Shown piece after piece: positions 907-26,887 of a stretch of DNA of 30,050 nucleotides; position 1 is the stretch's first letter; each line of letters starts with the position of its first letter. The position numbers were made by a program, and so were the translations under genes. The DNA comes from Candidatus Omnitrophota bacterium (GTDB lineage Bacteria; Omnitrophota; Omnitrophia; Omnitrophales; Aquincolibacteriaceae), in the NCBI GenBank assembly GCA_041653795.1, contig JBAZER010000027.1, forward strand, positions 1-30,050, in the 5' to 3' direction. A model generated the notes under the pieces. The model had not been told where the DNA came from. It searched no databases and saw only the letters and a list, made by a program, of their open reading frames with translations.

Positions 907-982
907 TGGTCGGGGTGAGAGGAATTGAACCTCCGACATCTTGCTCCCAAAGCAAGCGCTCTAGCCCCTGAGCTACACCCCG
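907..982 (-). tRNA. tRNA-Pro, anticodon TGG, CCA encoded
   Basis: The reverse complement folds as a canonical cloverleaf: acceptor CGGGGTG/CACCCCG, D-arm GCTC..GAGC, anticodon stem CTTGC/GCAAG with loop TTTGGGA, T-arm GGAGG-TTCAATT-CCTCT, discriminator A, then CCA. Confidence 0.85.
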
Positions 983-11993: not shown

Positions 11994-13067
11994 TTAAGGT
12001 TGATCCAGCTGGAGAATCTTGTTCATATATTGTTTTATTTTCGATTCGATATCAAGCAAGGTCTTCTCGTAAACCTGCATGTCCATCCCGATGGGGTCCT
12101 CTACATTCAGCGTGATCGTCTTTTCCTTCACCGAAGGCAGCATGGCCGCCACGTCCTCCGCATGCTGTGCGAACATCGCGAGAACCAGATCTGAGCTCCA
12201 GAGGTCCCCTTTCCGGCAACGCCGGCTGCGAAACCCGCTGATGTCGATCTCGCGATTGCGCAGCACCAGCTCCGCCTCGGGCGTGCACGGAAGCCCGTCC
12301 CGCGCGCTCGTCCCGCAAGAAATGACTTCGATCTCGGAGGACAATCCCCTTCTTTCAATCTCGTGTTTGAGCCACCCTTCCGCCATCGGTGAGCGGCAGG
12401 AATTTCCCGTACAAACGATCAGGATGCGCTTGCTCGGGCATTTCCGGGATCGGATCTTTTCGATAGCCTTCTCCACATCCGCGCCTTGCGCCCCTTTGCG
12501 AAGAATCACCGGAATCTCTCCCGTGAGATCCATGACCGTCGAATCGTGCATCAACTCCGTCTTACCGCCATCGATCAGTTGATCGAAAGCGCCCTGCAAT
12601 TGTTCAACCACTTGGTGCGCTGTATGAGGCGAAGGTTTCCCGCTCCTGTTAGCGCTGGTTGCGATGAGCGGCTCCCCGACCTCCTGGATCAAGGCAAGCG
12701 CGATCTTGTTCCTCGGATATCTGATCCCGATCTTATGACCGGCAAGATCGGAGACGATCAACGTTACCGGTCCCGGCCAAAATTGCCGGGCCATCGTGCG
12801 AACGAGCGGTGTTTTTCTGACCTTGAGCGCATCGAGCATTACCCAGTCGCCTATGTGATAGGTAAAAGGTTTTGCGTCCGAACGCCTTTTGATCTCGCGA
12901 AGCCTCTTTTCAATCTCCGGGGCGCTCATCTTCCCGCCTATCCCATAAACTGTTTCCGTGGGAAATGCAATGATTTTGCCCTCTTTACAGGCATTCGCCG
13001 CTTCCCGGATAAGTGTCATATCCGGATCATAGCTGTCAATCTTGATCACTCCAGGCGTTACCATCAT
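11994..13067 (-). CDS. Fusion protein. The N-terminal ~205 aa are an L-threonylcarbamoyladenylate synthase (YrdC/TsaC) domain. The C-terminal ~150 aa are a low-molecular-weight protein phosphatase domain (CX5R P-loop CTGNSCRS plus a DP general-acid motif)
   Basis: YrdC motifs (FPTETVYGIGG, ATSANRSGKPS) followed by the LMW-PTP/YwlE-like signature (ILIVCTGNSCRSPMAE ... VEDPIG). Confidence 0.8.
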   Translation of the reverse strand: MMVTPGVIKIDSYDPDMTLIREAANACKEGKIIAFPTETVYGIGGKMSAPEIEKRLREIKRRSDAKPFTYHIGDWVMLDALKVRKTPLVRTMARQFWPGPVTLIVSDLAGHKIGIRYPRNKIALALIQEVGEPLIATSANRSGKPSPHTAHQVVEQLQGAFDQLIDGGKTELMHDSTVMDLTGEIPVILRKGAQGADVEKAIEKIRSRKCPSKRILIVCTGNSCRSPMAEGWLKHEIERRGLSSEIEVISCGTSARDGLPCTPEAELVLRNREIDISGFRSRRCRKGDLWSSDLVLAMFAQHAEDVAAMLPSVKEKTITLNVEDPIGMDMQVYEKTLLDIESKIKQYMNKILQLDQP

Positions 13068-14437: not shown

Positions 14438-14938
14438 CTACTTGATCTTTTCCTGAAGTTTCCGGTTCTTTTCCCGGCTGCTTTCTATCAAAGAATGTTT
14501 GTATTTCCGGAGCTTTTCCGCCAGTTTCGCGTCCGAAAGGGCCAGGATCTGTACCGCCAAAAGACCGGCATTGCGCGCGCCGGGTTTTCCCACGGCCACC
14601 GTTGCCACGGGAACTCCGGCCGGCATCTGGACCGTCGCCAAAAGCGCGTCCAAACCATTCATCTGAGTCGCTGCCAGCGGCACCCCGATCACCGGCAAGA
14701 TCGTGCTCGCAGCCACAGCACCGGCCAAATGTGCGGCCCCGCCGGCACCGGCAATAATGACCTTAAGGCCCTTCTGCGTCGCCTGGGTCGCGAAATCCGC
14801 GACAAGGATCGGTGTGCGGTGCGCCGAAAGCACCTGCATCTCAAAGCTCACGCCAAAATCCTTGAGCACTTCCGCGCATTCCTGCATCACTTCCAGGTCC
14901 GAATCACTTCCCATCACGATCGAAACAAGTTCGTTCAT
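14438..14938 (-). CDS. purE: N5-carboxyaminoimidazole ribonucleotide mutase / AIR carboxylase catalytic subunit PurE
   Basis: [14 protein letters not shown]...SAHRTP...[13 protein letters not shown] pattern; no purK next to it. Confidence 0.9.
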
Positions 14939-16215
14939 CGCAGCACCTCAATAGCCTTTTGACCGATGTCCCGGCGGCAAAAACCGCCTTCGAAATGAAT
15001 TTGTGTGATCACTTGATAAACACGTTCATGCGCGGCCTTCAGCGTATCTCCCCAGGCTGTCACGGCCAATACACGTCCCCCGGCTGTTACGATCTGTTTT
15101 TGTGCGTTGAATGCCGTCCCCGCATGGAAAACCGCCACGTCCTGTTGCCCCCTCGCGGCATCAAGCCCCAGGATCGAAAAACCTTTTTCATAGTGACCCG
15201 GATACCCGCCTGAGGCCATTACGACCGTGATGCACGCCTTGTTATACCATTCAAGACTTTCGGTTTCCAAATGTTCGTTGGCGATCTGCATCATGACAGG
15301 CAGAAGATCGGATTTCAGGCGCGGTAAAATCACTTCCGTTTCGGGGTCTCCGAAGCGGCAATTGTATTCGAGCACAAACGGCCCGTCCTGGGTCATCATG
15401 ATCCCGGCATACAGAACGCCGCGATAAGACATCCCGTCCCGTGCCATTCCCTCGAGGATCGGACGCACCGCGATGTCAATAATCCCTCCAATCTCCGACT
15501 CCGGGATCTTCATGCTCGGTGAAAAAGCCCCCATGCCGCCCGTGTTCGGACCGCGGTCATGATCATAGGCCCGCTTGTGGTCGCGCGCACTCGCCAGAGG
15601 AATGATCTTTTTCCCGTCCGTCAGCACGAGGATCGAAAGTTCCTCGCCTTCGAGTTTCTTTTCGATAATGACCTTGGAGCCAGCGTCCCCGAAACTTTTT
15701 TCTTCCATCATTTGTGTCAGTGTTGCGACCGCGTGCCCGGAGCTGTCGCAGATCACCACGCCTTTGCCCGCCGCGAGCCCGTCCGCCTTGATCACGACCG
15801 GCATTTCGGCCTCGATCACATAATGCTTGGCCTCTTTCACGTTTGTAAAGACTTCGTAACCGGCCGTGGGTACGCCGTATTTGGTCATCATTTCTTTGGA
15901 AAAAACCTTGCTGCCCTCCAGAAGTGCCGTATTGCGCGCCGGGCCGAACACCTTCAAACCCTTTTCATTGAATTGGTCCCAGATCCCGGCCACGAGCGGG
16001 ACTTCGGGACCCACCACAGTCAGATCAATTTTTTCACGGAGCGCGAATTCCAGAAGACCGCTGATATCATCCGGCGCGATGGGAACACATTCCGCATGCT
16101 GGCTGATCCCGGCATTCCCCGGAGCAGCATAAAGTTTTGTGAGGAGCGGGCTCTGCGCGATCTTCCACGCAAGCGCGTGCTCCCTGCCGCCCGAACCGAC
16201 CAAGAGGACTTTCAT
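14935..16215 (-). CDS. purD: Phosphoribosylamine-glycine ligase (GAR synthetase)
   Basis: [18 protein letters not shown]... ATP-grasp enzyme; ATGA overlaps with purM and purE. Confidence 0.9.
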
Positions 16216-17231
16216 ATGATCGTAACTCCGCTCGAGCGGACGATCTTTCCGATCGGCCAGGAATTCAATTTAAAACCCTTCAAGACCTTTTGCGCAAGCC
16301 GGACATGACGTTTTTCAAGGATCACCACCATCCCGACGCCCATATTGAAGGTCTTGTACATTTCATGGTCTGAAACATTTCCAGCTTTTTGCGCGACGCG
16401 GAAGATCTCCGGAACTTTCCATGAATCACGATCAATTGTGGCGCCCAGCCCCTTAGGGATCACACGGGGCAGATTGTCATAAAAACCGCCTCCGGTAATG
16501 TTGACGATGCCCTTGAGCGGCAATTTTTTTACAAGCGCCAGGACCGGTTTCACGTAGATAATAGTCGGCGTCAAAAGTTTCCGGCCCACGGGACCTTTCA
16601 GTTCTTTTTCTGAAAAGATCTTCCGGATAAGCGAATAGCCATTGGAATGGAATCCCGAAGATTGAATGCCGAGGAGGATATCCCCCGTTTTAATCTTCCT
16701 TCCGGTCACGACTTTCTTGCGGTCCACCGCGCCGACTGAAAATCCGGCGACATCATATTGCGCCGCAAGCGCCGTCTTCTTGTCGGTATAAAACCCGGGC
16801 ATGATGGCCGTCTCGCCGCCCACGAGCGCGCAACCGGCCTGCCGGCAGCCTTCGGTGACGCCTTTTAAGACCTCCCCGATCACGTTCGTCTGGAATTTCC
16901 CGGAAGCATAATAGTCCAGAAAAAAAATCGGACGCGCGCCGGAGGTGATGAGATCGTTCACGCACATGGCCACAAGATCAATCCCGATCGTGTCGTGTTT
17001 TCCGAGAAGCCGCGCGAGTTCCAGCTTGGTCCCCACACCATCAGTCGAGGCCACAAGCAGAGGATCCTTGATGCCTGTTTTCGACAGGTCAAAAAGCGAG
17101 GCAAATCCAAGCGTGTCGCCGCAAACGCCCGGAGTGTGGGTCGAGCGGATAAGTCCCGCGATCTTCCGGTTGTACGCGGGGTCACCCTTAAGGTGCGGCA
17201 CTCCCGCCTTTTCATAAGTCCAACGCTTCAT
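16212..17231 (-). CDS. purM: Phosphoribosylformylglycinamidine cyclo-ligase (AIR synthetase)
   Basis: PurM N- and C-domains (…GLIRSTHTPGV…DGVGTK…). Confidence 0.9.
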   Translation of the reverse strand: MKRWTYEKAGVPHLKGDPAYNRKIAGLIRSTHTPGVCGDTLGFASLFDLSKTGIKDPLLVASTDGVGTKLELARLLGKHDTIGIDLVAMCVNDLITSGARPIFFLDYYASGKFQTNVIGEVLKGVTEGCRQAGCALVGGETAIMPGFYTDKKTALAAQYDVAGFSVGAVDRKKVVTGRKIKTGDILLGIQSSGFHSNGYSLIRKIFSEKELKGPVGRKLLTPTIIYVKPVLALVKKLPLKGIVNITGGGFYDNLPRVIPKGLGATIDRDSWKVPEIFRVAQKAGNVSDHEMYKTFNMGVGMVVILEKRHVRLAQKVLKGFKLNSWPIGKIVRSSGVTII

Positions 17232-17374
17232 CTTAGAATCTCCGGCAAAATGTCATTCCCGCAGGTTTTAAGCGGGAATCCAGAAAAAACATGGATCCCC
17301 GATAAAAGCACTCGGGGATGACAAAGGTTTATTATGTCAGACACTTTTCAAATAAAAAGAGCCAGCCCCCACGC

Positions 17375-18796
17375 TCATAGCTTGCAGCAATTCCTTTTAT
17401 GCTCCAGTTTATACTTGTCATCCGCATCATAGATTTTGGTCGGGTATTTCCCGGTAAAACATGCTGCGCAAAAGTCTTTCGGGTTTTGCGTCGTCGAACC
17501 AAGCATCCCCTCGAGACTCAGGTACCCGAGCGTATCCACGTTAAGGAATTTCATAATCTCCTCAATGCTTTTATTGGCCGCCAAAAGCTCTTTTTTCGAC
17601 GGAAAATCGATCCCGTAAAAACAGGGCGAAATGTGCGGCGGACAGCTGATCCTCATATGCACTTCCTTGGCGCCCGCACTCCTCAAAAGTTTCACGCGGT
17701 TCTTCGCCGTGTTCCCGCGCACGATCGAATCGTCGACCACAATCACTCGTTTGCCGTCCACGACCTGACGGATAGGGTTCAATTTGATCTTCACCTTGAG
17801 CTGGCGGCCCGCTTCTGAAGGACTAAGGAATGTGCGTCCGATATAGTGGTTACGGATGAAACCGTGCGAAAACGGTATCCCCGATTCCCTTGAATAGCCC
17901 AAGGCCGCAAAACTGCCTGAGTCCGGCACCGGGATCACGATGTCTGCGTCCACGGGATGTTCCCTGGCGAGCTGCCGGCCCAGTTTTTCACGCACAAGTC
18001 CCACGCTATCGTGAAAAATATTGGAATCCGGCCTGGCGAAATAGACGTGCTCAAAAATGCACTGCGCCTTGGCGATCTTTTCATCCTTAAAAGGAAAATG
18101 ACTGCGAAGCCCTTTACTGTCGATCACGACGACCTCGCCCGGCTCGATTTCGCGGACAAACTCCGCCTCGATCAGATCGAACGCGCAAGTCTCGGACGCA
18201 AGCACGTAACTCGGCCCTAATTTCCCGAGACAAAGAGGCCGGAACCCTTGCGGGTCGCGGACCCCGAACAAATGGTCCTCGGTCAGAAGAACCAGGCTGA
18301 ATGCACCTTTCGCGCGCTTTGCCGCCTCGATCACGCCTTCTTCATGAGAACGGTAGGATGGTTTGGCGATCATGTGCACAAAGACCTCGGAATCGATCGT
18401 GCTCCCGAAAATGGAGCCATAAGCCTCCAGCTCCGCGCGAAGGATCTGCGCATTCACAAGGTTCCCGTTATGCGCAATCGCGATCTGTCCGCGCGAATAA
18501 TCGACCTTGTAGGGTTGGGCGTTCAAAAGCGTCGAAGATCCGGTCGTGGAATAGCGCACATGGCCGATGGCGTTTTTCCCGGGGAGCTGCGCAAAAGAAG
18601 ATTCGTCGAACGCCTCACCCACATGCCCCATTTTCTTGACGAGATAAAGGTCAGAACTGTCGCTTGTGCAGATCCCGGCTGCTTCTTCGCCGCGATGCTG
18701 AAGCGCAAAAAGCCCGAGCTGTGTGATGCGCGCCGCCTGGGGATGATTGTAGATACCAAAGATGCCGCAATGATGCTTGATGTTTTCGCCGCTCAT
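17375..18796 (-). CDS. purF: Amidophosphoribosyltransferase. Start at the internal MSGENIKHHCGIFG (N-terminal Cys nucleophile); C-terminal Cys cluster of the Fe-S type
   Basis: Ntn-glutaminase CGIFG motif, PRTase domain; RBS GGAGAA upstream of the internal start. Confidence 0.9.
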   Translation of the reverse strand: MSGENIKHHCGIFGIYNHPQAARITQLGLFALQHRGEEAAGICTSDSSDLYLVKKMGHVGEAFDESSFAQLPGKNAIGHVRYSTTGSSTLLNAQPYKVDYSRGQIAIAHNGNLVNAQILRAELEAYGSIFGSTIDSEVFVHMIAKPSYRSHEEGVIEAAKRAKGAFSLVLLTEDHLFGVRDPQGFRPLCLGKLGPSYVLASETCAFDLIEAEFVREIEPGEVVVIDSKGLRSHFPFKDEKIAKAQCIFEHVYFARPDSNIFHDSVGLVREKLGRQLAREHPVDADIVIPVPDSGSFAALGYSRESGIPFSHGFIRNHYIGRTFLSPSEAGRQLKVKIKLNPIRQVVDGKRVIVVDDSIVRGNTAKNRVKLLRSAGAKEVHMRISCPPHISPCFYGIDFPSKKELLAANKSIEEIMKFLNVDTLGYLSLEGMLGSTTQNPKDFCAACFTGKYPTKIYDADDKYKLEHKRNCCKL

Positions 18797-18829
18797 AAGA
18801 ACTGTTCTCCATTTAATTTTAAAGGTTAA

Positions 18830-18875
18830 CAGTCCCAATACCTATCAATTTCAGCTTTGCTGAAATTGGGGCTGT
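18830..18875. promoter_or_regulatory. Nested dyad element AGTCCCAAT-acctat-CAATTTCAGC-ttt-GCTGAAATTG-GGGCT, 35 bp upstream of purF; a second copy is at 25391-25434
   Basis: 10-bp perfect inner inverted repeat plus an outer 9-bp imperfect one; not followed by a T-run on either strand. Confidence 0.4.
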
Positions 18876-18945
18876 CCAAACTGCCTTATTGGAAAAGAAA
18901 CCGAAAGTTTGGGCTGTACTAATACCGCAAACCCTCAAAATTTAT

Positions 18946-19045
18946 ATGCGTTGCTCCAGTTATTCCCTCCTGTAGGGCACATTTAAATGTGCCCTACGGA
19001 AGAGAGGATAGAGCGAATATCTCTCAGGAAACCGGAACAATGCAT
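18946..19045 (+). mobile_element. MITE copy 1 (100 bp). Imperfect ~16-bp TIRs (ATGCGTTGCTCCAGTT / AACCGGAACAATGCAT), a central 26-bp perfect palindrome GTAGGGCACATTTAAATGTGCCCTAC, and a 5-bp TSD TTTAT (18941-18945 and 19046-19050). Sits between purF and purL
   Basis: Three near-identical copies in the window, each with its own 5-bp direct duplication. Confidence 0.65.
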
Positions 19046-19063
19046 TTTATATAAAATGCGGTA

Positions 19064-21331
19064 TTATTTTCGTTCCATGATATTGGGAATCGTGTTTTCG
19101 AAAAGTTTCACCATGTTCCCGACTGTCAGCCGGATCCGGTCTCCCAGGATGAGCGTGTCTCCGCCTACCTTACCGATTTCGTAAAGTGCAACCCCCTGTT
19201 TCTGCGCCAAATTCCTGATGTCCTTTTGATGCTCGGGCGTGACCGAGATTACCACACGTGACTGACTTTCGCCGAAATAAAGTGCATCCGCACGAAGTTC
19301 CTTTTGATCTTTCAAAACACCGTCAAGACCGTTCACCACAGCACCCAAGCCGCCGGCGCTCTTGATGCAACATTCGGCAAGCGCAACCGCAAGCCCGCCC
19401 TCGGAAAGATCATGACAGGAAACGATTTTTTTTCCGTCTGCGGCGGCAAGGATGAATTGATGAAGCGCCTTTTCGCGCGCGAGGTCAAGGCGCGGCGGCA
19501 GGCCCTGCTTCAATCCGTGCTCGATCATCAGGTAGTGGCTCCCGCCAAGTTCATTGAACGTTTCGCCCGCGAGAAAAATAATATCATCAGCATTCTGGAA
19601 CGCCGACGGGACGCGTTTTTCGATATTCTCCAAAAGACCCACCATGCCGATCGTGGGCGTCGGATAGATGGCGCCCTGCGGGCTCTCGTTATAGAAGCTG
19701 ACGTTCCCGCCTGTCACCGGGATCTCAAGCGCCTTGCAGGATTCGATAATCCCGGAGACGGCGCTATGAAATTGCCAGAAAATCTCGGGTTTCATGGGAT
19801 TGCCGAAATTAAGACAATTTGTCACACCGACCGGCCGTGCGCCGGAACAGACGACGTTACGCGCCGCTTCCGCAACGGCGATTTTTCCGCCCTCGAACGG
19901 ATCGAGATAAACATAAAGACTGTTGCAATCGGTCGAGACCGCAATTCCTTTTTGTGTTCCCTTGATGCGGATGAGCGCAGCGTCATGTCCCGGATAAAAG
20001 ACCGTGTCCGTACGGACCATGTGGTCGTACTGTTGCCAAACCCAGGCCTTGGAAGCAATCGAAGGATCTGAGAGCAGTCGCTTGAGTACGTCACTGAAAT
20101 TCTCGGGCTCGGAAATTACGGCAAGATCAAGTTTTTGCGCTTCGGCAAGGTAGGCCGGCTTTTCTTCTTCACGCATATAAACTGGCCCGTCATCCGCAAG
20201 CGCTTTGGCCGGGATCTCCGCGGCCATTTTTCCCCCGTCCAGCACGCGATATTTGTCACCCCGGGTCACTTCGCCGATCTTTACGGCATGAAGGTCCCAT
20301 TTCGTGAAAATGTCCTCGACCTCTTTTTCCTTTCCTTTTTTGACAATGACCAGCATGCGCTCCTGCGATTCCGAAAGCAGGGTTTCATAGGGGGTCATTC
20401 CGGGCTCGCGGCGCGGCACTTTTGCGAGATCGATCTCGACCCCGGTGCTTGCGCGGGACGCGGTCTCGCAACCTGCACAGGTCAGGCCCGCGGCGCCCAT
20501 ATCCTGCATACCCACAAGCGCGTCGGTCCTGAGAAGCTCCAGACACGCTTCCATCAAAAGTTTTTCCATAAACGGATCACCCACTTGCACGGCCGGGCGG
20601 TCCTCATGACTTTGTTCCGAGAGCTCTTTGGAAGCGAATGCCGCGCCGCCAAGTCCGTCACGGCCGGTCGTGGCTCCCACATAATAAACCGGATTGCCGA
20701 TGCCGTGCGCCGCGCCGCGCACGATCTCATCTTTTTGGATGATCCCGAGCGCCATCGCATTCACCAGGGGATTTCCTTCATAAGCAGCATCAAAATAGAT
20801 ATCGCCTCCGACGGTCGGAATGCCCATGCAATTACCGTAATGCGCGATCCCTGCGACCACCCCGCGGAAAAGCCGCTGACTCACCGGCTGCGCGAGATCC
20901 CCGAACCGGAGAGAATTCATTAAAAGGACCGGCCGCGCGCCCATGGTGAAAATATCCCGGAGAATGCCGCCCACGCCCGTTGCCGCACCCTGGAAGGGCT
21001 CGATCGCCGACGGATGGTTATGACTTTCGATCTTGAAACACACCGCAAGACCGTCGCCGATATCCACGATCCCGGCATTCTCCTGTCCCGGTTTCACGAG
21101 CAGGTGCTCCTGACGCGGGAGTTCCGCATTCATTTTGGAAAAGAGCTTGAGGATGGACTTGGAATTCTTATAAGAGCAATGCTCGCTCCACATCACGCTG
21201 AACATCCCGAGTTCTGTGATGTTGGGGTCCCGGCCGAGAATGTCCCGGATATGTTGAAACTCTTCCGGCGTGATTCCGTGCGCCGCGATTAATTCCGAAG
21301 TGATAGGTGTCGTCGAATCCAGTACCGGCAT
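19064..21331 (-). CDS. purL: Phosphoribosylformylglycinamidine synthase subunit PurL (FGAM synthase II)
   Basis: 755 aa, two PurM-like repeats, typical small-PurL N-terminus (...[12 protein letters not shown]...). Confidence 0.9.
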
Positions 21332-21334
21332 AAT

Positions 21335-22024
21335 TTATTCCAGTGCGTTTGAGATGCTTTCGAAAATCCTGCGTCCGTCCGAAGAGCCGAGGAGGTCTTC
21401 ACTCGACCGCTCCGGATGCGGCATCATGCCCAGGACGTTCTTTTTCCTGTTCACGATGCCCGCGATGTGGTCCCTGGAACCGTTCGGGTTGAACTCTTCC
21501 CCGAGCTTCCCGTCCTCGGACGAATAACGAAAAACGACCTGGGAGTGGTCATGGAGGGACTTCAGCGTATCATCATCGCAATAATAATTCCCTTCGCCGT
21601 GCGCGATGGGAACACAAAGTGTCTCGCCCGGTTCCATCTGACCGGTAAAAATCGTCAGGTTCTCTTCCGTGCGGATCCAGGTGTGCTTGCAGATAAATTC
21701 CAGCGTTTTGTTCCGAAGCATCGCGCCCGGCAAGAGCCCGGCCTCCAGAAGGATCTGGAATCCGTTGCAGATCCCGATCACGGCCCGGCCGTCATTGGCG
21801 TGTTTGATCACCGATTCCATGACGGGAGAAAAGCGCGCGATCGCGCCGGTCCTGAGATAATCGCCGTAGCTGAACCCCCCGGGAATAACCACCAGATCCA
21901 CTTTGGGAAGGCTCCGGTCCTTGTGCCAGACATATTTCACAGGCACTTTGACGACGTCCTTAAGCGCATGGAAACAATCCGTATCGCAATTGGAACCCGG
22001 AAATACAATGACCGCGGCTTTCAT
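21335..22024 (-). CDS. purQ: Phosphoribosylformylglycinamidine synthase glutaminase subunit PurQ
   Basis: Class I glutamine amidotransferase with [14 protein letters not shown]... start; 229 aa. Confidence 0.9.
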
Positions 22025-22052
22025 GACTTTGAGATTTCCTTTTAAAAGCTTC

Positions 22053-22120
22053 CGTCATTGCGAGGAGTCCCGCCGACGGCGGAGCGACGCGGCAATCTCT
22101 CTCTACAAAAACGAGATTGC
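22053..22120. repeat. Short repeat CGTCATTGCGAGGA-[GC hairpin]-GGCAATCTC with a GCAATCTC/GAGATTGC hairpin; a related copy is at 26961-27033. Both lie just upstream of a MITE copy
   Basis: 14-bp and 9-bp identical blocks separated by different self-complementary GC stretches (CCGCCGACGGCGG vs CCTGCGAAGCAGG). Confidence 0.3.
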
Positions 22121-22159
22121 TTTCCGCCAGAGGCGGACACAAACTCGCAATAACACATT

Positions 22160-22259
22160 ATGCATTGTTCCGGTTTCCTGAGAGATATTCGCTCTATCCT
22201 CTCTTCCGTAGGGCACATTTAAATGTGCCCTACAGGAGGGAATAACTGGAGCAACGCAT
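22160..22259 (-). mobile_element. MITE copy 2 (100 bp, inverted orientation, identical to copy 1), TSD ACATT (22155-22159 and 22260-22264). Lies in the purQ-purS spacer
   Basis: Exact reverse complement of copy 1, flanked by a 5-bp direct repeat. Confidence 0.65.
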
Positions 22260-22270
22260 ACATTCTTTGT

Positions 22271-22528
22271 TTATGAAGGCACTTCTTGAATTTCGAATGA
22301 ATACTCTTCGATCACAGGATTATGAAGCAGCTTGTCGCACATGACGTGAATACATTCCTCCGCCTTTGTACGGTCGTCCGCTTCAAGCGCCAGCTCGAAA
22401 TACTTTCCGATCCGCAGGCTCTTTGCCTCTTTGAACCCCAGGGACTCGAGCGCGTGAAGCGTCGTTTGTCCCTGCGGGTCCAGGACCGATTTTTTTAAAC
22501 TGGTATGAATTCTTGCTGTAAATTTCAT
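22271..22528 (-). CDS. purS: Phosphoribosylformylglycinamidine synthase subunit PurS. Start at the internal MKFTARIH; the listed ORF runs to 22591
   Basis: 85-aa PurS fold sequence (…LDPQGQTTLHALESLGF…). Confidence 0.85.
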   Translation of the reverse strand: MKFTARIHTSLKKSVLDPQGQTTLHALESLGFKEAKSLRIGKYFELALEADDRTKAEECIHVMCDKLLHNPVIEEYSFEIQEVPS

Positions 22529-22613
22529 GTCGATCAACCCTCTTTCGTGTAGTTCGAATCTTCCCGCCTGGGACTGGGCCCCATTATTCAACGGCGGTAT
22601 GTTTTTTTAACTT

Positions 22614-23534
22614 CTAGCTTCGGATATCTTTTCCAGACAGACGTTTATAAATCTCACAATAGGCTTCGGTGGTTTTTTCGATGATATCGCCTGGAAGCTC
22701 CGGCGCGGGCGGGCGCTTGTCCCACGAGAGCGTCTCGAGATAATTCCTCACGATCTGTTTGTCGAAGCTCGTCTGGTCATGACCGGTCTCATATTGGTCA
22801 GCCGGCCAAAAACGAGAACTGTCCGGCGTCAGAATCTCGTCGATCAATATTATCTTTCCATCATGGATCCCAAATTCAAATTTTGTATCCGCAATGATGA
22901 TCCCTTTCGACGCCGCGTATTCCTGGCCTTTCTTGTAGAGAAGAATAGAAAGGTCCTTGGCCTGCTGGGCGATGTCTTTGCCCACGATCCGGATCGCTTC
23001 GCTGAAATCGATATTGATATCATGCCCGGTCTTCGCCTTCGTGGACGGGGTGAAGATCGGTTCCGGGAATTTCTGGCACTGTTTCATCCCGGGCAAAAGC
23101 GTGTGCCCGCAAACCTTGCCCGTCTTCAAATAATCTTTCCAACCAGACCCGGTAATGTAACCCCGCACCACGCATTCAATCGCAAGCGGCTTGGCCCGTT
23201 TCACGAGCACCGAACGCCCGGTCAGTTCATGACGAAAGTTAGCGACCACCTCTTTCGGCAAACCCATCGCGTCCACATCCGCGGTGATCAGGTGCTGCGG
23301 GAGAACATCTTTGAAATATTCGAGCCAGAAAAGCGTGATCTGGTTGAGCACTTTTCCCTTCATCGGGATCGGGTCAGGCATCACCACGTCAAAAGCACTC
23401 AGCCGATCGGTCGTCACGATCAGAAGCTTATCGGAACCCACGCCGTAGATATCACGCACCTTTCCGGCCGCTACACGCGGCAGAGGCAGATGCGTTTCCA
23501 GGATCGCTTCGTTCCTGTCAAGATCACTGAACAT
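22614..23534 (-). CDS. purC: Phosphoribosylaminoimidazole-succinocarboxamide synthase (SAICAR synthetase)
   Basis: 306 aa long-form PurC with GKVRDIY motif. Confidence 0.9.
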   Translation of the reverse strand: MFSDLDRNEAILETHLPLPRVAAGKVRDIYGVGSDKLLIVTTDRLSAFDVVMPDPIPMKGKVLNQITLFWLEYFKDVLPQHLITADVDAMGLPKEVVANFRHELTGRSVLVKRAKPLAIECVVRGYITGSGWKDYLKTGKVCGHTLLPGMKQCQKFPEPIFTPSTKAKTGHDINIDFSEAIRIVGKDIAQQAKDLSILLYKKGQEYAASKGIIIADTKFEFGIHDGKIILIDEILTPDSSRFWPADQYETGHDQTSFDKQIVRNYLETLSWDKRPPAPELPGDIIEKTTEAYCEIYKRLSGKDIRS

Positions 23535-23559
23535 ATTTTGGTTCCCTTATTTCTTTTTC

Positions 23560-25002
23560 TTAAAAATGAACCTTACGCACTTCGTTTCGTAAGCTCTTTT
23601 TACGTATCATCCCAGAAAAAGACTGGCCTGGTTTATACGTGACCCCTTTATCGGTAACCGTTGATGCATACAAAAAATCTTTTAAAACCCTTCGTTTCGA
23701 AAACATTTCAATTCCCGTACGTTTCAGAATGACCGGCACATTCTTGAGGTGTCTGTCATAGCTGAAAACCGCGCGGATCTCCTGGGGCGTCAGGACTTTC
23801 AAGATCTTCTCGTCTTTCAGCACCACCTGCTCCAGGTAAAGCTTTTCATCTTCCCAAAGCTTCCTGGCCGCATCCTGCACAAGCTTGTAGCCTTCCTCGC
23901 GCGTCAAGCCCTTCTCCACGAGGGCAAGAAGCAGGCTTTGCGAAAACACCATTCCGCGGCTCGACTCCAGATTCTTGAGCATGCGGTCCTTATTGACCAC
24001 GAGGTTCTCGATCACGTTCTGCATGAGCCCAAGCATGTAATCAAGGAGGATCGTGCTGTCGGGGAAAATGACGCGCTCGACGGAAGAATGCGTGATGTCC
24101 CGCTCGTGCCAAAGTGCGATATTCTCAAAACCCGCGAGCGCGTTCCCGCGAAGAATGCGCGAAAGTCCTGCCACACGTTCGCAGGTGATCGGGTTGCGCT
24201 TATGCGGCATGGCTGAGGAACCTTTCTGCCCTTTTGAAAAAAATTCCTGCACTTCAAAAATCTCTGTCCTCTGAAGACCCCGGATCTCGGTCGCAAGTTG
24301 TTCGAGCGTTCCACCAACAATTGCGATTGCACCAAGATATTCCGCATGACGGTCGCGCTGAAGGACCTGCGTCGAAACCGGCGCCGGGTTCAGCCCGAGC
24401 TTCTTGCAGACAAATTCTTCGACCCTGGGATCCACATTTGCAAAAGTCCCGACTGCGCCTGAGATCTTGCCATAGCGAAGATTTTCTTTGGCGGCCTCAA
24501 GACGCACGAGGCCCCGTTTACATGCGGCATGGAAAAGCGCCATCTTGAGCCCGAACGTGATAGGTTCGGCATGCACGCCGTGCGAGCGCCCCACCATAAG
24601 GGTACGGGCATGTTCTTTGGCTTTTTTGCCGAGAAGGGAGATAAGTTTTTTCAGTTCGCGGATAAGGATATCCGAGGCTTCCTGGACCTGGAGCGAAAGC
24701 CCGGTATCCAGAACATCTGATGAGGTCAGTCCAAAGTGGACGTAGCGGCCGGCAGGGCCGGCGTTCTCGGAAATATTGGTAAGAAAAGCAATGACGTCGT
24801 GATTGACGACCTTTTCGATCTCTTTGACTCGTTCAATGTCGAATTTCGCCCGTGCACGGACTTTGGCGGGAACATCTTTGGGGATATAGCTGTAACGTGC
24901 AAGGCCCTCAAGCGCGGCCAGTTCCACCTCAAGCCACTTTTGGAGCTTGTTCTCTTCCGTCCAGACCTTCGCCATTTCCTGGCGTGTGTAACGAGAGATC
25001 AT
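23560..25002 (-). CDS. purB: Adenylosuccinate lyase. Start at the internal MISRYTRQEMAKVW with RBS AAGGAAGGTGG; carries a ~50-aa basic C-terminal extension beyond the usual PurB end
   Basis: Fumarate-lyase/PurB signature (...SSAMPHKRNP...); start codon 33 nt downstream of the tRNA-Glu 3' end. Confidence 0.9.
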   Translation of the reverse strand: MISRYTRQEMAKVWTEENKLQKWLEVELAALEGLARYSYIPKDVPAKVRARAKFDIERVKEIEKVVNHDVIAFLTNISENAGPAGRYVHFGLTSSDVLDTGLSLQVQEASDILIRELKKLISLLGKKAKEHARTLMVGRSHGVHAEPITFGLKMALFHAACKRGLVRLEAAKENLRYGKISGAVGTFANVDPRVEEFVCKKLGLNPAPVSTQVLQRDRHAEYLGAIAIVGGTLEQLATEIRGLQRTEIFEVQEFFSKGQKGSSAMPHKRNPITCERVAGLSRILRGNALAGFENIALWHERDITHSSVERVIFPDSTILLDYMLGLMQNVIENLVVNKDRMLKNLESSRGMVFSQSLLLALVEKGLTREEGYKLVQDAARKLWEDEKLYLEQVVLKDEKILKVLTPQEIRAVFSYDRHLKNVPVILKRTGIEMFSKRRVLKDFLYASTVTDKGVTYKPGQSFSGMIRKKSLRNEVRKVHF

Positions 25003-25035
25003 CTTGTGTCCACCTTCCTTATGGCCCACAACCAA

Positions 25036-25113
25036 TGGTAGCGCTAACGGGATTTAAACCCGTGTTTCTGCCTTGAGAGGGCAGCGTCCTAGATCAGGCT
25101 AGACGATAGCGCC
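25036..25113 (-). tRNA. tRNA-Glu, anticodon CUC, CCA encoded. The T-loop is unusual (TTTAAAT) and the D-loop has no GG
   Basis: Reverse complement GGCGCTATCGTCTAGCCTGATCTAGGACGCTGCCCTCTCAAGGCAGAAACACGGGTTTAAATCCCGTTAGCGCTACCA. 7-bp acceptor, Glu-like D-arm (TCGTCTAG...AGGAC), anticodon stem CTGCC/GGCAG with loop CTCTCAA. Confidence 0.7.
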
Positions 25114-25363
25114 CTGATGTATCCAATTTATTTTCCCACATGGCTACATTAGGGCTGCACTGATTTCTCGATTCTTTTCTCAATAGAAAATCAGGCGCCC
25201 TGATGGACCTATTCAATCAGGCGCCATACAAACACGGGGCCTGTCAGAAACTAACCAACGATTGAAAACTGATTACGCCCTGATGGATCCAATTCATTTT
25301 TCCAATGGCTCCATTAGGGCTGCATTGATTTCCCGATTCATTTCTATATGGAAAATCAAGCGG
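25109..25363. repeat. Two tandem ~88-bp units (25109-25197 and 25275-25363, ~85% identical) directly upstream of tRNA-Glu. Each has hairpin 1 GCCCTGATGKA...TMCATTAGGGC and hairpin 2 YTGATTTCYC...RGAAAATCAR. A diverged middle segment also starts CGCCCTGATGG
   Basis: Read directly. Three compensatory base-pair changes between the two copies; G-U wobbles appear only in the plus-strand RNA sense. Confidence 0.6.
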
Positions 25364-25390
25364 GGGGATTGAAAATCCTTCAAACAAGTC

Positions 25391-25434
25391 CAGTCCCAAT
25401 TCTTTTCAATTTCAAAAAATCTGAAATTGGGGCA
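25391..25434. promoter_or_regulatory. Second copy of the nested dyad: CAGTCCCAAT-tcttt-TCAATTTCA-aaaaatc-TGAAATTG-GGGCA. Lies upstream of the tRNA-Glu/purB transcription unit
   Basis: Same outer and inner arms as 18830-18875, but a different loop sequence and length. Confidence 0.4.
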
Positions 25435-25566
25435 GCCCTCGTCACCATTCAAAAAACAAAGACAAGGGCAGTATAGCTTTGCCCCTATAGGATGTCAACG
25501 GAACTAGTCCCGGTCACCTTAAATTCAGCAAAAGTCGGGGCGATCGAACGACGCGGAAAGACAATA

Positions 25567-25845
25567 CTAGAACTTTCGATCAACCTTGTCCTTCAGGTCG
25601 TACACGGACTTCTCAAGCATTTTCACACGCTCGGACATGAACCGATTTGCCTGCTCCAGATCCGCGACGCGCCGTTCAAGTCTGTCCGCACGGTCCTGCC
25701 TGAGAGTCTTCTCCATATCGGCGAATTCCGTCGAAGTTCCACTCATCCCCGTCCCCGCCGCTTCGTCCTCGACCGCCCACGAAAGTGAGAATACGATCGA
25801 AAAAAACAGCACCCCTAAAATTGAAATTGCTGCGAGTTTTTTCAT
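25567..25845 (-). CDS. Small secreted coiled-coil protein (signal peptide MKKLAAISILGVLFFSIVFSLSWA, then about 65 aa of heptad repeats); Lpp-like in size but has no lipobox Cys
   Basis: Read from the translation; internal start chosen at MKKLAAIS. Confidence 0.45.
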   Translation of the reverse strand: MKKLAAISILGVLFFSIVFSLSWAVEDEAAGTGMSGTSTEFADMEKTLRQDRADRLERRVADLEQANRFMSERVKMLEKSVYDLKDKVDRKF

Positions 25846-25963
25846 AGGAGTCACCTCGAGCGGAGTATATCATAATTATAAAAGACGGGGAACGCAAAAC
25901 GGGAAACGCTGAACGCCAACGCTTTTTCGTTACCCGTTAACCGTTCCCCGAGCCCCGAGGCGT

Positions 25964-26887
25964 TTAGCCTCGAGGATGGAATTTCGCGTGAACGGACTTG
26001 AGGCGGTTTCCGGAAACATGCGTATAGATCTGTGTCGTGGAGATATCGGAATGACCGAGGAGCTCCTGCACGACGCGCAGGTCCGCGCCGCGTTCCAGCA
26101 GGTGCGTCGCAAAAGAATGGCGAAACGTGTGGGGTGTGATTGTTTTGGTGATGCCGGCAAGCCGCGCGTATTTTTTGATCATCTGCCATACAAATTGACG
26201 CGTCAGCCCCTTCCCGCTCCTGCCCAGAAAAAAATGATCCGTCCTGGTCTTCAATTTTGAACGGAACCTGGCAAGATAAGTCTGGCAAGCGGAGACCGCA
26301 ACACTTCCGAGCGGCACGAGCCGCTCCTTGTCACCCTTGCCGCGGCACTTGATGAACTTGTTATCCAGATACACATGCTCCGCCGTGAGCTCCGTGATCT
26401 CGGAGACCCGCATCCCGGTCGCGTAAAGGCATTCCAGAAGCGCCAGGTCGCGTATTCCCCCGGGCTTTTTGACGTCCGGCATCTTGAGAAGAGAGTCCAT
26501 CTCCTGTGCGGTCAAAAAGTGCGGCAGCTTTTTCCAGAGCTTCGGCGACTCAAGGACGCTTGTGATATCGCTTGGAACATAGCGTTCTTTGGCGAGAAAA
26601 CGGTGGAAAAGCTTGACCGAGACAAGCCCGCGTGCGATCGAGGAAGATTCGAGTCCGCGCCTGCTTTCCGCATTCAGGAATTTCAGGATGTGCGTCCGCG
26701 AGACCTTGCTCCAGTCCGAGACCTTTTCTTTTTTGAGGAATACGTCGTAGCGCACAAGGTCCTGCCGGTAAGCGTCGAGCGTGTTCTGCGCCAGTCCTTT
26801 TTCCACGGAGAGATAATTCAGGAACTCTTCAAAGAGGGACTGGTTCTTGTCCCTGGGTTTTTCCGGAGTCACCGCTGTTGTATCCAT
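25964..26887 (-). CDS. xerD: Tyrosine site-specific recombinase of the XerC/XerD type (most XerD-like)
   Basis: 307 aa; conserved R..H..R..Y catalytic C-terminus ...LLGHSDISTTQIYTHV...; the N-terminal core-binding domain aligns along its length with XerD. Confidence 0.8.
   Translation of the reverse strand: MDTTAVTPEKPRDKNQSLFEEFLNYLSVEKGLAQNTLDAYRQDLVRYDVFLKKEKVSDWSKVSRTHILKFLNAESRRGLESSSIARGLVSVKLFHRFLAKERYVPSDITSVLESPKLWKKLPHFLTAQEMDSLLKMPDVKKPGGIRDLALLECLYATGMRVSEITELTAEHVYLDNKFIKCRGKGDKERLVPLGSVAVSACQTYLARFRSKLKTRTDHFFLGRSGKGLTRQFVWQMIKKYARLAGITKTITPHTFRHSFATHLLERGADLRVVQELLGHSDISTTQIYTHVSGNRLKSVHAKFHPRG

Follow-up and report, generated by a model that had tools for sequence, protein, structure and literature searches.

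A tRNA-Glu(CUC) gene with a compensated A19-U56 elbow pair probably heads a purine operon in a clade of Omnitrophota

In the tufB operon of Escherichia coli and Salmonella (thrU-tyrU-glyT-thrT-tufB) and in the metY-rimP-nusA-infB operon of E. coli, which is the second precedent for an operon led by a tRNA gene, tRNA genes lie 5' of protein genes, transcription starts at one upstream promoter, and the tRNAs are released by nucleases. In the tufB operon, one promoter region is followed by four tRNA genes and then by tufB (PMC6134099). Here we describe a comparable locus in a 30,050-nt stretch of DNA from a Candidatus Omnitrophota bacterium (contig JBAZER010000027.1, assembly GCA_041653795.1; this whole stretch is hereafter called the window), where a tRNA-Glu(CUC) gene precedes purB and the other genes of a purine cluster. 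The arrangement of a tRNA gene 5' of a protein operon is the same as in tufB and metY. Unlike those operons, the putative window operon makes purines rather than translation factors, its spacer is much shorter (33 nt), its leader is unusually long (80–350 nt), and its co-transcription is predicted from the sequence.

The tRNA itself also has described counterparts. A survey of 319 bacteria showed that the CUC isoacceptor occurs naturally in many of them, and that tRNA-Glu(CUC) is auxiliary, highly dynamic, often gained or lost, and usually paired with tRNA-Gln(CUG), which it typically follows in a two-gene operon (PMC4041420). The window tRNA resembles these auxiliary tRNAs in that it would read GAG alone beside an obligatory UUC isoacceptor and in its patchy, clade-specific distribution (PMC4041420), but it stands solitary before purB and carries A19-U56 and G1·U72. 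On its outer side, the tRNA elbow presents the 19-56 pair as a flat face, and it is here that RNase P, T-box RNAs, and elements of the ribosome stack (PMC4810234). As in the canonical elbow (PMC4810234, PMC7912444), the window tRNA keeps G18, U54, U55, A58, G53-C61, and a Watson-Crick pair at 19-56, but this pair is A-U and not G-C. A tRNA-Glu changed in the T-loop has been described from the chloroplast of Euglena gracilis. The point mutation is reportedly C56U. As relayed in PMC5654406, which cites Stange-Thomann 1994, the mutation kills recognition by glutamyl-tRNA reductase and leaves translation unaffected. That change was an uncompensated laboratory mutation, whereas in the window the partner base has changed as well and the altered pair is fixed in nature.

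We consider it likely that the window tRNA is a genuine auxiliary elongator tRNA-Glu(CUC), a reader of GAG only, and the first gene of a tRNA-purine operon in one Omnitrophota clade. An earlier annotation made from the sequence without database searches (the sequence-only reading) had placed a tRNA-Glu(CUC) gene 33 nt before purB and proposed ARAGORN as a check. ARAGORN called a 78-nt tRNA-Glu with the anticodon CTC on the minus strand at that place (coordinates in Table 1), and the full model of Rfam RF00005 matched it with 58.1 bits (E 2.8e-10; the gathering score is 29); the distance counted from the CCA to the purB ATG is indeed 33 nt. The tRNA sequence, GGCGCUAUCGUCUAGCCUGAUCUAGGACGCUGCCCUCUCAAGGCAGAAACACGGGUUUAAAUCCCGUUAGCGCUACCA, shows the elongator layout of RF00005, with stems of 7 bp (acceptor), 4 bp (D), 5 bp (anticodon), and 5 bp (T), and the cloverleaf is the minimum-energy fold of the isolated tRNA (−27.9 kcal/mol, z −2.8 versus shuffles). 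The anticodon loop, CUCUCAA, is 7 nt long and has U33 as well as a purine in position 37.

Relatives were retrieved on the basis of PurB, which gave 33 loci from metagenome-assembled genomes of Candidatus Omnitrophota with 66–97% identity (numbered with the prefix L below); an identical PurB is encoded on NCBI contig JBAZKB010000067.1 (GCA_041651065.1). ARAGORN found tRNA-Glu(CUC) on the same strand upstream of purB in all 31 testable relatives, L018 and L028 being left out of this count with ~110 nt of upstream DNA each. The same program found no tRNA-Glu(CUC) before purB in loci with a PurB identity of 58% or less, which included two other Omnitrophota. Across the clade, the gene order is kept as xerD, a small open reading frame (ORF) of 92 aa, promoter, leader, tRNA, and purB-purC-purS. 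No tRNA-pur linkage in Omnitrophota was found in the literature. The tRNAs of the relatives and the window form 12 distinct variants, in all of which U8, A14, G15, and C48 (the G15-C48 pair) are invariant.

The elbow of this tRNA is where it departs from the usual pattern. The D-loop, AGCCUGAUCUA, has its sole G at the G18 position, followed by A19; G18, U54, U55, A57, and A58 are kept and G53-C61 is present, but the conserved G19 and C56 are changed to A and U, respectively. Among the compared tRNAs, G18, U54, U55, and A58 are unchanged, and the 19-56 pair is A-U in the window and 27 relatives, G-C in four relatives (L029, L030, L031, and L033), and mismatched in none; counted by distinct variant (n = 12), it is A-U in 9, G-C in 3, and mismatched in 0. 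The A-U group has the window-type D-loop ...GA... together with the T-loop UUUAAAU (UUUGAAU in L022), and the G-C group has the D-loop ...GG... together with UUCAAGU or UUCAAAU. Over the 12 variants, 99.7% of the pair cells are standard and eight pairs have both sides changed, values that none of 500 shuffles reached and that collapsed in shifted registers. In the absence of any mismatched locus, the tertiary contact has been compensated and not abolished, and on this covariation G19-C56 is replaced by a Watson-Crick A19-U56 pair. In a rough neighbour-joining tree of PurB, L032 (A-U) stands beside L033 (G-C), and L029–L031 (G-C) are sister to the main A-U clade; one or two independent swaps are possible, a tree of a single protein being weak for their number. 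The A-U state is kept across species with 70–97% PurB identity.

As a small control, we compared 43 background tRNAs from unrelated loci (L081, which is the window's own tRNA, was excluded), and found C56 in 43 of 43 and GG in 41. The sequence-only reading had singled out the T-loop TTTAAAT as unusual and proposed that the G19-C56 pair was replaced, and both claims hold: U56 stands where every background tRNA has C56, and the relatives show A19-U56, never a mismatch. It had also described the D-loop as lacking GG, which is correct for the dinucleotide, although G18 is kept and just G19 has become A. Its suggestion of a lineage-specific tRNA architecture applies to tRNA-Glu(CUC) and not more generally; the window tRNA-Pro(UGG) (982..907) has the canonical GG and UUC, so A19-U56 is specific to tRNA-Glu(CUC) and not lineage-wide. 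In the open-access literature we found no A19-U56 in a bacterial tRNA, the sole match being mitochondrial tRNAs.

The L-shape and the flat elbow face would be retained with A19-U56. Near-neutrality is the simplest expectation because an A-U pair retains the Watson-Crick geometry, and most likely the swap is near-neutral or at most tunes recognition by elbow-binding partners. The locus thus offers a natural example of covariation, in which the near-invariant G19-C56 can be replaced by A19-U56, and it supports the view that what RNase P, the ribosome, processing enzymes, and other partners of the elbow recognise in this pair is its shape and stacking surface and not the identity of the bases.

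The features expected of a glutamate tRNA are largely present in the window tRNA. The bacterial tRNA-Glu identity set, as recognized by the E. coli synthetase GluRS, consists of U34-U35-C36 with A37, U11-A24, and U13·G22 with A46 and no nucleotide 47; the acceptor-stem pairs G1-C72 and U2-A71 play a minor part in E. coli. The D stem of the window tRNA (GUCU/GGAC) provides U11-A24 and U13·G22 of the augmented D helix, the variable region (AAAC) has 4 nt with A in the third position, and U35, C36, and A37 are present, position 34 being C. A blastn search of E. coli genomes with this short and diverged query gave no match, and global identity to E. coli tRNA-Glu did not discriminate between isotypes. 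In 18 genes of the window, 254 GAA and 191 GAG codons were counted; GAG thus makes up 43% of the Glu codons, which means that an ordinary decoding job exists for tRNA-Glu(CUC). According to the wobble rules, a tRNA with C34 decodes GAG only, and therefore the genome must encode a UUC isoacceptor at another place, the CUC gene being auxiliary.

The position of the tRNA at the head of a purine operon, another claim of the sequence-only reading, is borne out by the gene order on a single strand: purB-purC-purS-purQ-purL-purF-purM-purD-purE follow on the minus strand, and every gene exceeds its NCBIfam equivalog cutoff. The spacer, measured in the relatives from the discriminator base to the purB start codon, is 21–45 nt in 20 of 31 relatives and in the window, and spacers down to 21 nt leave no space for a separate promoter. 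The ORF listing extends purB to an in-frame TTG at 25035, overlapping the CCA, but this start was rejected in favour of the ATG at 25002; it is not credible because the homologous spacers of 21–45 nt are not multiples of 3 and the homologues align from the ATG. In the window spacer (25003–25035), a consensus scan for sigma-70 sites found no promoter-like or terminator-like site, in agreement with the earlier claim that a terminator is absent and a promoter has no room there.

Upstream of the tRNA, on the other hand, the scan found a TTGACA-17-TATACT motif, which recurs 107–394 nt upstream of the tRNA in 26 relatives, including the G-C group; in L001 and L019, it is the sole promoter-like site in the 600 nt scanned. 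This motif presumably drives the tRNA-pur transcription unit. A promoter created inside the tRNA by the C56U change, with TTTAAAT as the −10 element, was also considered; the best candidate, CTCTCA-16-TTAAAT, matched 7/12 without the A at position 2 of the −10 element and was rejected as weak. In the co-transcription that the sequence-only reading had proposed, the shared strand, the short spacer, the lack of an intervening site, and the conserved upstream promoter are observed, and we infer the transcript itself from them. Taken in this way, one clade of Omnitrophota very probably has a tRNA-pur operon that opens with tRNA-Glu(CUC).

The most economical model would be one transcript from the promoter through the leader and the tRNA to the pur genes. 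Transcription would start at the conserved TTGACA-17-TATACT, cross the long leader and the tRNA, and continue into purBCSQLFMDE. RNase P would cleave at G1 of the tRNA. The 3' end would be released by an endonuclease followed by exonucleolytic trimming where the CCA is encoded, and by RNase Z followed by CCA addition where it is not; about 20 loci encode the CCA and 11 do not, including the closest relative (L023), and therefore both maturation routes must operate across the clade. The processed purB mRNA would then carry a 5' untranslated region (UTR) of ~33 nt bearing the Shine-Dalgarno sequence. Under this model, a biosynthetic operon, that of purine synthesis, joins the short list of operons with a tRNA gene at the head, and in this uncultured lineage purine synthesis may run from a stable-RNA-type promoter. 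For annotation, tRNA-Glu(CUC) should not be dropped as a pseudogene, and the purB start should be placed at ATG 25002 and not at TTG 25035. The locus combines a rare isosteric tertiary pair with a probable tRNA-led mixed operon and is not a new class, and current concepts are unchanged by it.

Table 1. Features of the tRNA-Glu(CUC)-pur locus in the window.
Feature	Position (nt)	Strand	Evidence or remark
Putative near-consensus sigma-70-type promoter TTGACA-17-TATACT, 11/12	25470..25498	−	Consensus scan and conservation
5' leader, ~350 nt, with remnants of the C/U-rich block (...CCCCGC / TTTTCAATCG...CCGTGTTT)	25114..25469	−	Alignments
Distal copy of the ~90-nt repeat, 85–86% identical	25271..25362	−	Inserted within the conserved leader block
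Proximal copy of the ~90-nt hairpin repeat	25105..25197	−	Adjoins the tRNA and covers its first 9 nt
tRNA-Glu(CUC), encoded CCA, G1·U72 wobble	25036..25113	−	ARAGORN, Rfam, fold, covariation
tRNA G1	25113	−	
tRNA G18	25095	−	
tRNA A19	25094	−	
tRNA anticodon C34-U35-C36	25077..25075	−	
tRNA T-loop UUUAAAU	25058..25052	−	U56 at 25056
tRNA discriminator A	25039	−	
tRNA encoded CCA	25038..25036	−	
Spacer / purB 5' UTR, 33 nt	25003..25035	−	Sequence, promoter/terminator scan
purB Shine-Dalgarno AAGGAAGGTGG	25020..25010	−	
purB (adenylosuccinate lyase), first protein gene of the cluster	23560..25002	−	TIGR00928, 530.6 bits
purC, purS, purQ, purL, purF, purM, purD, purE	14438..23534	−	NCBIfam equivalog matches

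Several observations weigh against an operon led by a tRNA-Glu as described above. The acceptor stem of the window tRNA has G1·U72 and G2-C71 and differs from the identity pairs of E. coli tRNA-Glu, of which G1-C72 is found in L024 and L025 and U2-A71 in L029–L031. Co-transcription and the processing sites are deduced from the DNA and not from transcripts, and the promoter scan used the sigma-70 consensus, which may not be the rule in Omnitrophota. The spacer is longer in 11 of 31 relatives (56–114 nt in seven loci, 376–407 nt in L009, L015, and L020, and 670 nt in L033), so the tight juxtaposition of tRNA and purB is not obligatory and extra promoters are possible there; the spacers of L001 and L003 contain a TTGACG...TAAAAT motif, whose spacing is off and which the scan did not call. 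In the window leader, a weak terminator-like hairpin (25204..25190, minus strand; AUCAGGGCGCCUGAU then UUUCUAUU) lies 77 nt upstream of the tRNA; it arises at the junction of two repeat-bounding sequences, and terminator-like sites are no more frequent in the region than in shuffled sequence. The range of spacers from 21 to 670 nt with tolerated inserted genes, the motif in L001 and L003, and the restriction of the scan to sigma-70 would also suit a different explanation, in which the tRNA gene and its pur neighbours for the most part form separate transcripts, those of pur coming from a promoter that lies inside the tRNA or is not of the sigma-70 type. We regard this as unlikely, since the spacer is at most 45 nt and consists of the Shine-Dalgarno region alone in 20 loci and the window, the best sigma-70-like match within the tRNA reaches 7/12 without the A at position 2 of the −10 element, and the sole strong conserved promoter is upstream of the tRNA. 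The same explanation holds that most tRNA transcripts stop or are cut at the 3' end and that the neighbourhood is an accident of auxiliary tRNA gain, in keeping with the highly dynamic, often gained tRNA-Glu(CUC) of the survey (PMC4041420); we give this little weight as well, because the window spacer has no terminator-like site and because a GIY-YIG ORF inserted in some relatives (see below) overlaps the purB start (ATGA), which fits a continuous transcript.

The altered elbow could alternatively mark a specialised tRNA-Glu, either one that is charged and serves translation but escapes glutamyl-tRNA reductase or a different consumer of Glu-tRNA, or one that RNase P or RNase Z processes more slowly, with an effect on the expression or stability of the pur mRNA downstream. 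U56 at a position where C56 is almost invariant (43 of 43 background tRNAs) and the stability of the A-U state over 70–97% PurB identity speak for it, as do the contacts of the elbow face with the ribosome, RNase P, and T-box RNAs (PMC4810234), the role of C56 as a determinant of T-loop modification in Thermus (PMC7912444), and the Euglena mutation as relayed in PMC5654406. Against this, the compensated swap preserves the Watson-Crick geometry on which the partners stack, the remaining tRNA and tRNA-Glu features are intact, and the sister lineages with G19-C56 also precede purB, so the operon arrangement is independent of the swap. A specialised, non-proteinogenic tRNA, such as the cell-wall tRNA-Gly of Staphylococcus, would be expected to have lost contacts between the D-loop and T-loop with no compensating change, and to be encoded beside the pathway that consumes its aminoacylated form. 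For the window tRNA, by comparison, 19-56 is compensated, and no gene for an enzyme using Glu-tRNA is nearby: the neighbours are xerD, a gene for a small secreted protein, and the pur genes, none of which is a known user of Glu-tRNA. We therefore think it quite improbable that this is a specialised tRNA, and we find no support for the proposal of the sequence-only reading that it might be specialised and perhaps regulatory, or for any role outside translation, given the intact cloverleaf and Glu features, the compensated elbow, and the share of GAG among Glu codons (43%). An elbow that is not neutral, with tRNA-Glu(CUC) as a distinct functional class, is a similarly doubtful proposition. If it were true, glutamyl-tRNA reductase or another reader of the elbow might ignore the tRNA, reserving its Glu-tRNA pool for translation; or altered RNase P or RNase Z kinetics might make the tRNA a cis-acting 5' processing module that sets the amount, 5'-end chemistry, and stability of the purBCSQLFMDE mRNA, and purine synthesis would be tied to a growth-rate-controlled stable-RNA promoter. 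There is, lastly, hardly any chance that a tRNA gene is decaying here, or that a recombination or attachment site beside xerD, for instance, has left a tRNA-like remnant. The non-canonical U56, A19, and G1·U72 wobble, the duplication of the tRNA 5' edge by repeats, and the tyrosine recombinase gene upstream would fit such a remnant, but the gene scores double the gathering threshold in Rfam and the sequence is almost invariant down to 66% PurB identity, with all stem changes compensatory. The recombinase, moreover, exceeds the NCBIfam XerD equivalog cutoff and keeps its position across the relatives, and hence looks like a housekeeping XerD. The covariation effectively refutes a pseudogene.

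We also analysed the leader between the promoter and the tRNA. Most of the clade shares a C/U-rich block in it, TTCTCCCCGCAACTTGTTTTTCAATCG...CCGTGTTTT (~25220–25290 and 25362–25375, minus strand, in the window), which includes a CCUCC-like anti-Shine-Dalgarno motif. The window leader has grown to ~350 nt by insertions, including two copies of a ~90-nt repeat. Each copy is bounded by duplications of CATCAGGGCG, which equals the 5' flank and first nucleotides of the tRNA, and the last duplication overlaps the tRNA 5' end. The repeat contains a hairpin of 9–10 bp (CUGAUUUUCU...AGAAAUCAG) and the motif GCAGCCCUAAUG. It also occurs upstream of the tRNA in L023, L004, L008, L009, L014, L016, L002, and L021, in 1–3 copies and with a patchy distribution among close relatives, and its hairpin differs compensatorily between loci (CUGAUUU/AAAUCAG, UUGAUU/AAUCAA, and CUGGCUUUCC/GGGAAACCAG). 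Outside the tRNA leader, the repeat was not found in the 30-kb window or in the other DNA fetched. Possible origins are a site-specific miniature insertion and a slippage duplication. A second inverted-repeat element, GGGCUGCCCCAAUUUCAGAUUUUUUGAAAUUGAAAAGAAUUGGGAC, lies just past the promoter (25395–25445, minus strand) and is present in some loci only (the window, L003, L009, L015, and L016); over part of its length it could pair with GCAGCCC, a segment of the ~90-nt repeat, to which it is complementary.

Searches for a conserved structure in the leader gave largely negative results. Rfam, searched over 24950–26050 with E values up to 5, returned the tRNA and chance-level matches only and no family for the leader or the spacer, and RNAalifold on 18 leaders gave no consensus structure, with no pairs predicted. 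A helix between leader and trailer, enclosing the tRNA or masking the purB Shine-Dalgarno sequence, was rejected as a candidate: RNAduplex energies at 19 loci were no better than those of shuffles (z −1.8 to +1.7). In the window, the minimum-energy pairing across the tRNA (CAUC/GAUG) is not significant (z −0.85). In L026 alone, TTCCTCTCGCACC in the leader is complementary over ~13 bp to GGTGCGGAGAGGA in the spacer, making possible a helix around the tRNA that resembles an rRNA processing stem. The leader motif CTTGTTTTTCAATCG bears what we take to be a vague resemblance to the boxA of rRNA leaders and might be an antitermination element in common with rRNA operons. A metagenome scan for this motif gave, among the matches listed, unrelated chance matches and none with an Omnitrophota leader or tRNA.

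The 3' side of the tRNA is also a site of insertion in the clade. In three relatives, a GIY-YIG ORF (Pfam PF01541, E 3e-20) lies between the tRNA and purB (L009, 2625–3000; L015, 2594–3000; L020, 979–1366). The insertion point is directly after the discriminator base of the tRNA, so that the ORF stands in place of an encoded CCA. At its other end, the stop codon of the ORF shares bases with the purB start (ATGA), as would be expected of a single continuous transcript. Five loci without the encoded CCA and without the ORF (L002, L005, L014, L016, and L023) retain the left end of the ORF, TGGTTCGACGC, as a scar. The distribution suggests that a mobile GIY-YIG gene has been repeatedly gained and lost at the tRNA 3' end. 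A different gene, for a Cu/Zn superoxide dismutase with a signal peptide (PF00080, SodC), lies between the tRNA and purB in the distant relative L033 (2332–3000), and at this locus only.

Some features of the neighbouring genes were also noted. The conserved 92-aa ORF between xerD and the tRNA promoter (25567–25845, minus strand) is found in at least 23 relatives; its product has an N-terminal signal-like hydrophobic segment and a C-terminal coiled coil, with weak bZIP and coiled-coil matches in Pfam. The window PurB has 480 aa, and since TIGR00928 and most relatives end at about residue 430–438, a C-terminal tail of ~45–50 aa (23560–23700) is uncovered. The window pur cluster (14438–25002) is without purN, purH, and purK. 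On the same strand, it is followed by a flotillin-like gene, a gene for TsaC fused to a low-molecular-weight phosphatase/ArsC-like domain (11994–13067), glyA, and nrdR.

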